A stretch of 64,000 nt of DNA from Octopus vulgaris. Lineage: Eukaryota. The notes beneath the pieces were generated by a model that saw only the letters and a program-made list of their open reading frames with translations, did no database searches and was not told the origin of the DNA. Of this stretch, positions 13,928 to 23,957 are shown piece after piece (position 1 is the stretch's first letter; the number at the start of each line of letters is the position of its first letter). Location: contig OX597832.1 in NCBI GenBank assembly GCA_951406725.2, positions 52,080,001 through 52,144,000 of the forward strand, in the 5' to 3' direction. A program made the translations under genes and the position numbers.

Positions 13928-14322
13928 CTATTTTGCCGTTTCCATTGTTTTATTTAATCCATTTGCGTAATCCTTGGAATTGCTGGCGCGTAGCAGAGCT
14001 TTCAAAAACTGGTCTCGATTTTGGCTAGAATGTAAATGTGAAGAACTTCCATATCCTTGCGGTACTAAAAGGCGGCAAGCTGCTTCGCAATACTTGTGAG
14101 GACACCTATTTTGCGAACAACGACGCTTGCACCAAGGTGTAGCTCCGGGGTTGTTTCGCCATGGTAGCTTCGCTTCGCATTCTGTATTCCTACTTGGCGC
14201 CGTAGTTGTCTTCCAGTTAAATGCATTTCTTCGAGAAATCGAAACATCAGCACATGCATAGAACTGTTCTTGTTTACCACATCCACGGCAACATTTGCCA
14301 CCTTCACAACCCCACGATGTAG
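13928..14322 (-). CDS. AA15-family LPMO gene A, coding exon 3 (end of catalytic domain, Thr linker, 6-Cys module, tail, stop)
   Basis: Not in the ORF track in this frame. Acceptor ttaaatag|CT completes the phase-1 codon (GCT). Reads ATSWGCEGGKCCRGCGKQEQFYACADVSI...KTTTAPS...CEAKLPWRNNPGATPWCKRRCSQNRCPHKYCEAAC...TMETAK then TAG at 13930-13928. Total CDS 942 nt, 313 aa. Confidence 0.92.
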
Positions 14323-15017
14323 CTATTTAAGATAAATTTAATAAAGACATATTAATAAAATTGAAAACGAAATGAAAAGGTATTACAGCAACATTGAAAA
14401 CTTATTCAAAATGGAGAGAGAAAATTCGAAGGATTTCTTTGGTCTAATGGTAGAGCACCTGTCATATTTAAGGAAGTTGTAAGTTCGTATCACACGGGCA
14501 GCCTTCGATTTTTTTTTTTTTTTCGAAAGGGTTTTTTTAAAACTCGCTATTTACATGCTATCATTTATAGCTTAATGTGCTTCGAGATCCAATGTTCCAA
14601 AATTTATCATTTCACGTTTTCTCGAAAGTTTATAAAATTCTTATGACATCACTAACAGCAACAACAACAACAACAACAACAACAACAACAACAACAATAA
14701 TAATAATAATAATAATAATAATAATAATAATTATAATATTTTCTATAATTGGCAAAAAGCCTTAAATTTTATGGGAGGAGGCTTTTCGATTACATCGACC
14801 CTAGAATCTGACTGGTACTAATTTTATCAACCCCAAAAGGATGAGAGACAAAGTCGACCTCGGTGGAATTTGAACTTAGAACATAAAGATGGACGAAATG
14901 CCACCAAGCATTTTGTCCGGCGTGCTAACAATTCTGCCATCCCACCACTTTAATAATAATAATAATAACAACAACAACAACGACAACGACGACGATGATG
15001 ATGATGATGATGATGAA

Positions 15018-15620
15018 AAAAGAGACTGACAGCACTATGGTGGCAGCGCAAGAGCAAGCCTTGACCACGAATTGGAAGGTCAGCTTTAGGATTGAGCAAT
15101 TGTCTCCTCTATGCGGCATCTATAATAGAGTGGACCAAAGCATTGTCCATATCACGAACGAATTCCCCAAACCATGACAAGTTGTGGAGACACGATAAGG
15201 TAGCGAAAGTGCTACACTAGAAACTGCGAAAACTGTGGTGCGTGGCGGAGTCGGAGACTTGTAAAATCCTCTGGGACTTCTCAATACAAACAGATCAAGT
15301 GCTAGAGCATAACAGACCGGGTCTAGTGGTGGTCGACAAGATTAACTACATGTTATATAGTTGATGTTGCGTGCCCCTTTGGCCCACGAATCGTCAAGAA
15401 GGAAGGTGAAAAAAAAATAAATATAATTCCCTTTTAAGTACGAAATAGCCCGTCTGTGAAAAATGAAGAAGGCGAAGATGGTGTCAATTATTGTTGGGTC
15501 CTTGGGGATAGTATCAAAAGACATTAAGAGGAATATCAAGGAAATTGGAATAGAGTGCCCGTTACAAAAGGCTTGCCTCCTTGGCACGGCCAGAATAATC
15601 AGGAAAGTATTAGTTAAAAA
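15018..15620 (+). mobile_element. Decayed non-LTR retrotransposon 3' part with restriction-like endonuclease (R4/Dong-like)
   Basis: Frameshifted motifs AAQEQAL, zinc-finger remnant, RHD.VA, ILWDFSIQTD..LEHNRP.LVVVDK, IVDVACP; abuts a (TAA)/(CAA)/(GAT) tract. Confidence 0.75.
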
Positions 15621-16652
15621 GAACAGATAGTATTGTACCGTGGGCTGCAGGCAGCAAGCCCGCTACGCATGCAAGACTCCGAGTGTTTCAGCAGATCCTG
15701 AGATAAAAGGAAATAATTCCTTTATCAACCGTACTAAAATGGGACACAACACAATCGGGTTTTACATCAAATAAAAACAAACAGAAAAGATAATCGAGAA
15801 GGAAAAGTCCCCCATATTGGGTAGCTACATTGGACTAATCAAGAAAAACCACAGATTAAGCTAACCACTAATGGAAGTGCCTACTCGCAGCCGTCATCTG
15901 TCTATATTGAGAGTAAACCTGTCTATTTGGTCTATATTCGCCACTCTGTCAGCGATCTTTCGACACATTTATTTGGAGGCAGCGTATCCCGCTGAGTTTA
16001 AATTCCTCCAAGGTCGACTTTGTGAGTTTCATTTTGAAAGGGGTGGTATGTTGGGTATGTAGTAAATAATCACAATTTTACATCTACGAGAGGCATAATA
16101 ACCTTTTATACAAAAGGCTCAAGGCCAGGATTTTGTGGGGAGGGGGGACAGTCGATCACATCGACCCCAGTACACAACTGTTATTTAATTTATCGACCCC
16201 GAAAGGATGAAGGTAACATCAATCTCGGCGGAATTTTCACTCAGAACGTAGCAGCAGACGAAATCCTGCTAAGTACTTCATCCGGCGTGCTAACGATTCT
16301 ACCTGCTCGCCGCCATACGAGAGACAAAATAATAATAATAATAATAATAATAATAATAATAATAATAATAATAATAATAATAATAATAATAATAATAATG
16401 ATGATGATGATGATGATGTTGATAATAATCTTTTCTACTTTAGGCACAAGGCCTGAAATTTGGGGGGGGAGTCAGTCGAGTAGATCGTCCCCGGTACGCA
16501 ACTGGTACTTATTTTATCGACCCTGAAAGGATAAAAAGCAAAGTCGACCTCGGCTGAATTTGAAATCAGAACGTAGCGGCAGACGAAAAACCATGTTTTG
16601 GTCAGATCCAGAATTTTAAAATATCTTTTAATAGAACCTATAAATGGCGAAA

Positions 16653-16913
16653 GTGGAGGCGCGTGGCTTAGTGGTTAGGGTGTCAGCATCATGGTCGTAA
16701 GATTATGGTTTCGATTCCTGGACCGGGCGACGCGTTGTGTTCTTGAGCAAAACTTCTTCATTTCACGTTGCTCCAGTCCACTCAGCTTGCAAAAATGAGT
16801 AACGCCGCGACGGACTGGCGTCCCGTCCAGCTGGGGAACACATATGCCATTGAAACCGGGAAACTGGGCCCATGAGCCTGGCTAGGCTTTAAAAGGGAGC
16901 AAAGAAAGAATAC
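16653..16913 (+). mobile_element. SINE family D (tRNA head, V-SINE-like GGACTGGCGTCCCGTCCAG block)
   Basis: A and B boxes; 9-bp TSD ATGGCGAAA at 16644-16652 and 16914-16922. Confidence 0.8.
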
Positions 16914-17345
16914 ATGGCGAAAATATTAGGGGGCAAATAAAACGAAAGCACCAAGGAAAAGTAAGCAGATGAGCTGCAGCAAACTAACAATAATCATTTG
17001 ACATAAGAGGCTTTCAAGAATAAATGAAATATTATTCAAACAATGTTAACACTGAACAAAAAATCACAAACACAGGTTTCCATATATATGGACGCCAAGA
17101 TAGATCGCTAGCTCCTACATGCATTTTTTTCTCTCCTTGTTTCTCTCCTTGTTTTTTTCTGTGTACCTTTCTGTCGAAGAGCGTAGGCTCGAAACGTAAA
17201 AGACTTTTCTATTCCTGAGCGCTATACTAATACATTTGTTTGTTTGTACTCCACCTGCCTTCGTCTTTTGTTTATTTTCGTAAACTTTCCCTTTCCATAT
17301 ATAACTTGGTCGATCTTTGATTGACAATAAGAACTATCATCTTAC

Positions 17346-21975: not shown

Positions 21976-22683
21976 TTCCGCAGAACCAATACCACTGGGT
22001 TCGACTTTTTTTTCTTTCCCGTATCGATAAAATGAATTCCATCAAAATATGGCGATTAATGCCAATATTAAAAATCGCTGTTATTAAGATGGCAGAGCTG
22101 TAGAAACAATATCGCGCTAGGCCGACAGTTTTGCCGTATTTAACTTCAATTCTGAGTTCAAATCCCACCAGAATTGATAGTGGATTTATTTCTCTGACAT
22201 CGATGAAATAAGTTATCGACCTGTTATGTATTGGCATCAGATCTACAATAAACAGCCCAATAAATTTGTGTGCGTGTATGAAATTCTTATGTCTGCTATG
22301 AAATGTAGCCAAGATATAAATTATTTAGTTTAAAATTTCTTCTTGTGTAGGCTATGTACTTTATTCGCAGCGAGTTGATGGAAGAAGCGGTTCTGGTAAA
22401 ATACTAAAGCCCGCTAACGTTTTGACTATTTTTATTATATTTTTGTTAAGTTCTTGGCAAACTGGTTGCTGTCCACTTTGATTCCCAAATGGAGTTTTTC
22501 TATTTTGTCATTAATATTTTAAAAACATTAACATCTATGACCAGCCTTTTTGCCACGTTCTTCAAAATATTAGGTTTTGTGTTTATATGCGGAGTGATAA
22601 TGCATGTATAGACTGAAAAATGAATAAATGCATGGGCATAGACGAATGATACGTGCGAAAATGTGATTATGTATATATATGAA

Positions 22684-23071
22684 CGAGCAAAACGCCCCCC
22701 CCCACGTCCAATGGACGGTGCTGAGTTGTCAAACATTTAAACCAAATTTTCACAAAATAACTTGTCCGACCGTCCCATAGACCTCCCCTTTGAGAAACAC
22801 TGATTTAGCCTAAATTTGAGACATCAGCAAAAGAAGAAATAAAGATAGACTTTTTTTCTATTCAAAGGAAAACGATTTTACAAATGCACGTTCCCACGGC
22901 TTTATCGATCGCATTCTCACTTGGAATCGATTTTTGTAATTTTTTAAAGATTTATACACGCCCTGATACCGTCGGTATCGACATATCAAATTTGAGCGCA
23001 ATTGGATGGAGGATGCCCGAGATCCTAGAAGACACACACACAGACAGACAGAACGGATTTTATATAATAGA
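22684..23071 (-). mobile_element. Non-autonomous Helitron-like element, internally deleted copy
   Basis: Reverse complement of 3980-4581 lacking about 200 bp internally; hairpin CGTCCA-T-TGGACG, CTCG end, A|T target. Confidence 0.7.
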
Positions 23072-23283
23072 TTAGCAAATCGGTATGTACCGGACTATTT
23101 TACATTTCGAGATTTCAATTGTACAATACCTCTGCTGCCCATCCTAAAAACAAAACTGGCAAATGTTATATTAATAAACTATATTTATATTTATGATTTT
23201 ATGAACCATGCATGTTATATAAGAAACGTGTTTGAAAGTATATGTAAATACATTAACCATTATATAGACGTAAATCATAAACT

Positions 23284-23709
23284 GGATCTTTTCGGTTTGA
23301 ACGGCAGCTTTTTCTAGCGGTGTCATATGAAATTGTCACCCATAATTATGACCCTAGTATCGATCTATTGCATTTCAATCTGTTTTAGGGTTAGGGTTAG
23401 TTAGGGTTAGGGGTGGTGGAAGGGTATCTTTTTTTCTTCAGAAATGTAAATAAACCCAATCTGTTTCTTAAACGAGGGACATTTTCATACGGCACAGAAT
23501 GTTTTCACCTCAATAGACGTCAGTGATTGGTTGAAATTGCAGAAATTGAAGAAGAAAAAACAACAAATATCTTACAAACTATAGAATTTTCTTAATAAAG
23601 CCAAGAGAAAAAGATGTTTTATAAACACATTCTACCAGTATACGAAGTTTAAAAGTGTTTAGTTACGTGGAAATTATGTTAAAAACTGCCGTTCAAACCG
23701 AAAAGATCC
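23284..23709 (+). mobile_element. TTAGGG-containing MITE, 8-bp TSD (in LPMO A intron 1)
   Basis: Same TIRs; TSD CATAAACT. Confidence 0.92.
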
Positions 23710-23786
23710 CATAAACTTAATTGTTTAGCAGATCAACAAAAAATATTGCTTGTAAAATTTAAGAAAAGAAAAACTGGAGAACTTAC

Positions 23787-23957
23787 AGAAAAGCCACCGC
23801 AGTAAATTTGATTGTCGTTATAATTAATAGGATTGGGAAAGCCAAAACGCCACATACTAGAGCGGCTGGCGGGATCAACCAATCGGCCATGAGCTGTAAC
23901 ATAATGACTCTGTAACAGAACTAATATTAAGAAGATTAGCGTTTGTACTATTGGCAT
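23787..23957 (-). CDS. AA15-family LPMO gene A, coding exon 1 (22-aa signal peptide, then His1)
   Basis: ATG at 23957. MPIVQTLIFLILVLLQSHYVTA|HGRLVDPASRSSMWRFGFPNPINYNDNQIYCGGFS matches the AA15 N-terminal motif HGRL.DP..RSSMWR.G...P.NY.DN...CGG. Donor TCT|GTAAGT, phase 0, 171 nt. Confidence 0.95.

Follow-up and report, generated by a model that had tools for sequence, protein, structure and literature searches.

The window analysed here, a stretch of 64,000 nucleotides of the Octopus vulgaris genome, carries on its minus strand a complete three-exon gene for an AA15 LPMO and, on its plus strand, the first exon of a second AA15 gene (Table 1). Splicing of the three exons yields an AA15 reading frame of 942 nt, which encodes 313 residues and a stop codon and is interrupted by introns in phases 0 and 1. 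A scan of two bases to either side of all four splice sites returned a single GT-AG solution, which reproduces the three phase-compatible canonical exons of the original prediction. The product is identical to the O. vulgaris entry CAI9736986.1 and is already annotated in NCBI and UniRef; the gene is thus not hidden, as had been claimed. It differs at two positions from O. sinensis XP_029648323.1 (LOC115222289) and is 84% identical to O. bimaculoides XP_014781288.1 (LOC106877023), whose gene model begins at an ATG 14 codons further upstream, where the window reads AAG.

Table 1. Features of the AA15 locus, in positions of the window.
Feature	Position	Strand	Remarks
Exon 1	23787..23957	-	171 nt; Met1; ends in phase-0 donor GTAAGT
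Predicted signal peptide, residues 1-22	23957-23892	-	within exon 1
His1 codon of copper brace	23891-23889	-	exon 1
Tyr24 codon	23822-23820	-	exon 1
Intron 1	17722..23786	-	6065 nt, GT-AG; microsatellites present
Dispersed repeat, 184-bp unit	21179-21925		inside intron 1
Exon 2	17346..17721	-	376 nt; AA15 domain core, motif T-T-N-H
Thr87 codon	17568-17566	-	exon 2
His89 codon	17562-17560	-	exon 2
Intron 2	14323..17345	-	3023 nt, GT-AG, phase 1
Exon 3	13928..14322	-	395 nt; catalytic-domain end, Thr-rich short linker, six-cysteine module, helical tail, TAG stop
Trp164 codon	14314-14312	-	exon 3
Glu179 codon	14269-14267	-	exon 3
Axial Phe181 codon	14263-14261	-	exon 3
Six-cysteine module C-X15-C-X3-C-X4-C-X4-C-X3-C, residues 231-265	14075..14179	-	predicted chitin-binding accessory domain
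Tail motif F-x-x-x-L-[IL]-x-x-S-N, residues 288-297	13979..14008	-	in predicted helix
Second AA15 gene, exon 1	60215..60385	+	57 codons; signal-like leader, HGRLLEPPSR; remainder past window edge

Both exon junctions that had been put forward for checking were recovered in read data from four studies. The joint 14322/17346 was present in contigs of all four probable-RNA runs, their RNA status being a software guess rather than a recorded property, and in the same 4/4 runs loose contig ends at 17721 read the end of exon 1 (junction 23787/17721). Exon 1 was visible only through these loose ends because reads were mapped to 13905-19400. Contig depth ranged from 341 to 16,208 over the exons against 2 to 79 in the long intron contigs listed, a contrast that is consistent with spliced RNA but is no measure for ranking expression. 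In O. sinensis, O. bimaculoides and Argonauta hians the frame is likewise uninterrupted; an artefact or a pseudogene is ruled out by the intact frame, the four named orthologues and the spliced contigs. These data demonstrate the structure and the spliced form of the gene.

The family, fold and catalytic residues of the protein are also demonstrated. Residues 23-209 match Pfam PF03067 (LPMO_10) with an E-value of 1.2e-17 and 65.6 bits, over the cut-off of 23, and exon 2 by itself matches both PF03067 (E 1.5e-9) and TdAA15A (5MSZ; E 1.5e-27). TdAA15A is the only sequence match of the whole protein in the PDB (E 1.7e-47) and also the best Foldseek match of its AlphaFold model (pLDDT 88; TM 0.91 by target, rmsd 1.5 A, E 1.8e-21), while the runners-up are AA10s that score no better than E 3e-6. 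The cysteine motifs GKCGVCGD, CTQCVFRWKY and GCGKQEQFYACAD are all found in the spliced protein. Based on Pfam, the sequence match to TdAA15A and the fold, membership of AA15 is firm, and this part of the earlier interpretation stands. The chitin-active AA10 LPMOs CBP21, EfCBM33A and CbpD have the Pfam family, fold class and axial Phe in common with the octopus protein, but are only 13-20% identical to it (E 3e-6 or weaker), and the O. bimaculoides orthologue was unmatched by the AA10 model in the founding AA15 paper (PMC5823890).

Alignment to TdAA15A pairs its His1, His91, Tyr24, Tyr166 and Tyr184 with octopus His1, His89, Tyr24, Trp164 and Phe181, the two histidines being residues 23 and 111 of the precursor, at the mature positions first proposed. 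The two proteins agree in their fold, in the His brace and surface aromatics, in the Glu of the second sphere and in ten cysteines; the octopus catalytic domain has 12 cysteines, ten of them aligned, and thus one additional pair. Further differences are Thr for Ala89, Thr for Asn164, Trp for Tyr166 and Phe for Tyr184. The axial Phe is present in 159 of 165 aligned relatives and is shared with TdAA15B of Thermobia domestica, where it is described as the mark of a chitin-only enzyme (PMC5823890); Trp together with Phe is likewise reported to mark insect LPMO15-1 (PMC9156745). On sequence grounds, the axial Phe favours chitin over cellulose as substrate. Upstream of the brace, the leader reaches a peak nine-residue Kyte-Doolittle mean of 3.9 starting at residue 7 and ends in VTA, with His23 directly behind it; a hydropathy scan of the mature chain found no transmembrane-like stretch. 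This profile and the VTA|H context support the predicted 22-residue signal peptide, and the protein is predicted to be secreted with His1 freed by cleavage.

Because His1, His89, Tyr24, Trp164, Glu179 and Phe181 match those of chitin-active insect enzymes, C1 oxidation of chitin is likely. We think it quite probable that the gene encodes a spliced, intact AA15 LPMO, predicted to be secreted and to bind one copper ion, that likely cleaves crystalline chitin at C1. We propose that signal peptidase would cut after Ala22 to free His1, that His1 and His89 would hold copper over Phe181, Glu179 lying in its second sphere, and that Tyr24 and Trp164 may set the flat face onto the polymer. The reduced copper, with O2 or H2O2, would then hydroxylate C1 and nick the chain for GH18 chitinases, while the basic six-cysteine module may tether the enzyme to chitin.

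The motifs of this site also carry some less common residues. Thr87, two residues before the second His, occupies the position of the copper-shielding Ala89 of TdAA15A, Asn fills the position of Thr162 in 111 of 144 relatives, and all four named octopod proteins have one residue inserted after His89. Together these changes could, judged from the alignment, mean lower or changed activity. They favour an alternative that we regard as quite improbable, in which the protein binds copper and chitin with weak or no lytic activity and serves the cuticle in a structural or peroxidase-like role. The long stem of its clade (0.42, SH-aLRT 99) points the same way, as does a report that Ala before the second His restricts the axial site in AA10s (bioRxiv 10.1101/2022.04.15.488525). 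Against it, His1, His89, Glu179, Phe181, Tyr24 and Trp164 are conserved in all seven clade members, and Thr87 is not unique, since 36 of the 144 relatives with both histidines lack Ala (108 Ala, 12 Val, 12 Thr, 7 Ser and 5 other). The O. bimaculoides orthologue has Thr at the same site, yet was classed as AA15 by the family's authors; Ala is typical for AA15 but not strict. Moreover, insect LPMO15-1s are described with Ala or Ser at the equivalent site (PMC12955341), and a Photorhabdus AA10 with Ile instead of Ala is reviewed as retaining C1 oxidation of chitin (PMC8256616). Co-variation of the two positions was not established: both are changed in 26 proteins, one alone in 9 and 6, and neither in 102 (n = 143; Fisher p 1.7e-15), the 26 do not form one clade (p-AU 0.0003), and the independent-pairs p was 1 with only 1-5 supported pairs.

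The same residues, which in the alignment to TdAA15A fall in motifs predicted to line the copper face, could instead reflect an active LPMO with a different substrate or regioselectivity (C1/C4, cellulose-like, glycoprotein glycans), which we consider very improbable. The axial Phe is retained, and the octopus body and diet contain little cellulose, both of which count against this reading. TdAA15A substrates are reported to extend beyond chitin (PMC5823890), but the octopus protein retains the Thr at the third position ahead of the second His, which corresponds to the T of the AA10 chitin motif TAxH as given in bioRxiv 10.1101/2022.04.15.488525.

The Thermobia enzymes lack a C-terminal module; the octopus protein has one, and its cysteine pattern recurs in 90 of 174 homologues. 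All 24 module sequences searched were without a match to CBM14 or any other Pfam family at E<=10, the PDB gave no sequence match, and a feature search of the Atlas gave no usable match. A fold search with the 36-residue model against 48,161 chains found no match at Z>=2, a test that is weak at such size. Searched against 1.84 billion representatives, a module profile gave 508 matches at E<=0.001, which fall on AA15s, on GH18 chitinases and on proteins made of repeats only; the AA15 partners are partly circular because the profile was built from AA15 tails. Most of 148 profile matches carry no Pfam domain, and the GH18 association comprises two of the 148 (by Pfam) and one weak row from a structural comparison in the Atlas. 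A ladybird protein matches the module profile, which was built without it (E 4e-12). By analogy, we infer that the module may bind chitin, and it represents a cheaply testable candidate for a new carbohydrate-binding module.

Downstream of the module, the AlphaFold model predicts a helix at residues 281-296, and the motif in this tail is found only in the seven members of the octopus protein's clade (7/322 proteins compared). These seven rows group separately from the arthropod rows in a quick IQ-TREE of 137 of the 174 proteins, which has weak deep branches and only two insect/hexapod rows. It is conceivable, but in our view unlikely, that an octopod-centred AA15 subfamily exists, with this protein as type member, in which a rebuilt copper face (Thr87, Thr162, the insertion and the private helical tail) serves non-moulting chitin-protein tissues, with changed regioselectivity or limited remodelling activity, and that the module belongs to a widespread unclassified chitin-binding family for which we found no Pfam model or solved fold.

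A close architectural parallel is insect LPMO15-1, which shares with the octopus protein a signal peptide, an AA15 domain with Trp and axial Phe, and a C-terminal six-cysteine module of near spacing (PMC9156745). That account gives group I (TcLPMO15-1, LmLPMO15-1 and OfLPMO15-1) two tandem repeats, C-X15-C-X3-C-X6-9-C-X4-C-X1-C, and describes the repeat as not CBM14. The octopus protein has a single module, with spacing X4/X4/X3 in place of X6-9/X4/X1, and adds the helical tail; unlike the insect hosts, the octopus does not moult. Orthology with LPMO15-1 was rejected, given one module rather than two and no grouping with arthropod rows. Expression of LPMO15-1 is described in cuticle tissues and not midgut (PMC9156745), and octopus beak is reported to be alpha-chitin and the foregut to be lined by cuticle (PMC9716703, PMC9501996). 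Because insect LPMO15-1 carries the same kind of module, we propose that, if the enzyme is active, its most likely setting is on balance the maintenance of chitin-protein cuticles in the octopus itself, such as those of the gut lining, beak, radula and sucker.

Alternatively, the same chemistry could serve digestion or saliva, the enzyme working with chitinase to open the exoskeleton of crustaceans, which we judge somewhat unlikely. In octopods, chitinase is reported from the posterior salivary gland, digestive gland and stomach (PMC9501996), which leaves room for such a role, and insect group III LPMO15s are described as midgut enzymes. However, in the same account the six-cysteine module is missing from the AA15s of the insect gut, and the group that carries it is expressed in cuticle (PMC9156745), and AA15 is common in bivalves, which eat no crustaceans.

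The novelty implied by the original prediction does not hold, as octopus AA15 genes have been catalogued since 2018: the AA15 table of the founding paper lists XP_014781288.1 (E 3.8e-82, with no match to AA9, 10, 11, 13 or 14) and four further octopus entries (PMC5823890 supplement 8). As molluscan and octopus AA15 genes were catalogued then, the discovery itself adds little, and the protein is an ordinary family member. The open-access literature yielded no paper that characterises or assays a cephalopod AA15, in agreement with the earlier statement that no member is biochemically characterised, and no mention of the six accessions searched for in main texts; the supplements of PMC6635378 gave no match either. 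The octopus enzyme would test whether oxidative chitin cleavage is used by animals whose beak and cuticle grow without a moult, and whether Thr at the copper-shielding position affects the chemistry.

Among eight other long frames in the window, one gave a weak GIY-YIG match and one a chance-level match. Thr87, the six-cysteine module and exon 1 of the second AA15 gene were all absent from the original prediction. This second exon 1 points away from the first gene, has a profile match at E 3.5e-19 and is 44% identical to exon 1 of the first gene, whose codon and phase at the donor it shares (GTAAGA in the second gene).

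The three-exon structure predicted for the AA15 LPMO gene proved exact, and is the only GT-AG solution when all four splice sites are displaced by up to two bases. The spliced coding sequence of 942 nt encodes 313 residues plus a stop, and a sequence scan found no upstream in-frame ATG before a stop. Contigs from four of 20 listed runs, probably of RNA and from four studies, were compared with positions 13905-19400; the joint 14322/17346 is present in all four runs, and a single contig spans exons 2 and 3 in two. A loose contig end at 17721, whose letters are those of the end of exon 1, occurs in every run and attests the 23787/17721 junction; both introns are thus removed as proposed.

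Coordinates of the features of the window
Feature	Position	Strand	Remarks
Exon 1, studied gene	23957-23787	minus	GT-AG scan
Exon 2, studied gene	17721-17346	minus	GT-AG scan
Exon 3, studied gene	14322-13928	minus	GT-AG scan
Exon 1, second AA15 gene	60215-60385	plus	171 nt, phase-0 donor
Frame with weak GIY-YIG match	49568-50092	minus	E 4.6e-4, below cut-off
Stop-free frame, 339 codons	30161-31177	minus	overlaps microsatellites
184-bp dispersed repeat unit (+ 74-bp piece)	21179-21925, 32904-33271, 62138-62694, 44498-44648		head-to-tail copies, matches 90-95%
16-bp minisatellite TGCTACGGTAAACACA	331-1900		~98 copies, 94% matches
Internal short TTAGGG telomere-like runs	9751-9781, 43091-43124

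The assignment of the product to the AA15 LPMOs is upheld by the Pfam LPMO_10 family (PF03067), which spans residues 23-209 (E 1.2e-17), and by TdAA15A of Thermobia domestica (PDB ID: 5MSZ), its only match among PDB sequences (E 1.7e-47). An AlphaFold2 model (pLDDT 88, built on a 72-row alignment) agrees with 5MSZ at TM 0.91 and 1.5 A; AA10 enzymes come next, at E 3e-6 or weaker. Numbered from the mature N-terminus, the two predicted histidines, His1 and His89, align with TdAA15A His1 and His91, as does Tyr24 with Tyr24, while Trp164, Glu179 and Phe181 correspond to Tyr166, Glu182 and Tyr184. Glu179, which we take to be a second-sphere residue, is conserved in 163 of the 165 relatives aligned. 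An axial Phe, like Phe181, is found in TdAA15B, where it is reported to accompany chitin-only activity (PMC5823890), and a Trp/Phe pair, like Trp164/Phe181, is described as characteristic of insect LPMO15-1 (PMC9156745). On the strength of these aligned residues and likenesses, we infer a secreted copper enzyme that would oxidize chitin at C1.

The gene is not, as had been supposed, a hidden one. Exon 2 as query retrieves Octopus sinensis LOC115222289 (99%), whose cluster includes O. vulgaris CAI9736986.1 and O. bimaculoides XP_014781288.1; the spliced product is identical to CAI9736986.1 and differs from the O. sinensis protein at two positions. In UniRef it carries the name 'Chitin-binding type-4 domain-containing protein'. 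The paper founding AA15 enters XP_014781288.1, one of five O. bimaculoides proteins in the AA15 table of its supplement 8, as AA15 (E 3.8e-82), with no match to AA9, 10, 11, 13 or 14 (PMC5823890). The gene is therefore already annotated, with an orthologue listed as AA15 since 2018. Searches of open-access main texts yielded no assay of any cephalopod AA15, in keeping with the original prediction.

Residues were counted in 165 of 174 homologues (nine above 600 aa were dropped), 144 of which have both histidines. The motif ahead of the second histidine is T-T-N-H, with Thr87 in place of TdAA15A Ala89; the 144 relatives carry Ala (108), Val (12), Thr (12), Ser (7) or others (5) here, and Thr162 stands for an Asn kept in 111 of them. 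The three Octopus proteins and Argonauta share a one-residue insertion after His89. A rapid phylogeny built from 137 catalytic domains, with weak deep branches, places the protein in a clade of seven (stem 0.42, SH-aLRT 99), the other members being the O. sinensis, O. bimaculoides and Argonauta hians proteins and the homologues P0004, P0006 and P0024; among 322 proteins compared, the tail motif is confined to these seven. Substitutions at these two positions co-occur in raw counts; a phylogenetic test gave no support for co-evolution of non-Ala87 and non-Asn162, and the double variants are not a single clade (p-AU 0.0003). Further AA15 groups, mostly bivalve, likewise have neither the Ala ahead of the second histidine nor the G-N-S-W loop Asn (P0022, P0023, P0026, P0037, P0160; P0098-P0100, P0025, P0040, P0104). 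A shielding of the axial site has been ascribed to the Ala (bioRxiv 10.1101/2022.04.15.488525). Because insect enzymes are reported with Ala or Ser at this position (PMC12955341), and an AA10 with Ile there as chitin-active (reviewed in PMC8256616), we read the departures as tuning, rather than loss, of activity.

The C-terminal six-cysteine module (residues 231-265, C-X15-C-X3-C-X4-C-X4-C-X3-C) is similar to the insect LPMO15-1 repeat, C-X15-C-X3-C-X6-9-C-X4-C-X1-C, which according to its authors is not CBM14 (PMC9156745), but has X4/X4/X3 where the latter has X6-9/X4/X1. A looser version is present in 90 of the 174 homologues, and the module has no match in Pfam, PDB sequences or PDB folds. 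A profile from 24 modules matched 508 proteins at E<=0.001. Among 148 new proteins from the best 150 of these, Pfam identified LPMO_10 in 24, GH18 in two and EGF in one, the rest having no match above cut-off; an AA15 profile detected a catalytic piece in 64, a share inflated because the module profile was built from AA15 tails. The partner domains suggest that the module binds chitin. Across P0175-P0322 it reaches 21 copies per protein, and its carriers include GH18 chitinases, EGF-repeat proteins and many proteins rich in Ser/Thr/Pro that have no Pfam domain. The boldest reading, a copper face rebuilt in an octopod-centred AA15 subfamily together with an unclassified chitin-binding module, seems to us improbable as a whole.

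Beyond the observed splicing, family, fold and residues, we propose a model in which the protein would be secreted with His1 freed at its N-terminus, loaded with copper and tethered to chitin by the six-cysteine module, where it would oxidize the polymer at C1 and could aid GH18 chitinases. Upkeep of the octopus's own cuticles is our first choice of setting, since module-bearing insect enzymes are reported from integument and trachea, not midgut (PMC9156745), and in the octopus the beak is of alpha-chitin and a cuticle lines oesophagus, crop and stomach (PMC9716703, PMC9501996). The main rival is digestion of crustacean prey, for which the chitinase of octopod saliva and digestive gland speaks (PMC9501996), although shipworm AA15s are described as very low in the gut (PMC8561940).

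A second AA15 gene lies 36 kb away in divergent orientation; its exon 1 matches that of the studied gene in length and donor phase, at 44% identity, and a six-frame profile search found no further AA15 exons in the 64-kb window. XP_014781285.1, in the same AA15 table and with an accession near that of the orthologue, may be its O. bimaculoides counterpart (PMC5823890). The remainder of the window consists of microsatellites and dispersed repeats. The GIY-YIG frame is presumably a Penelope-like retroelement remnant; the 339-codon frame has no Pfam match and is probably not a gene. The 184-bp repeat is likely an octopus SINE-like element, and related copies in intron 2 show very deep contig cover.
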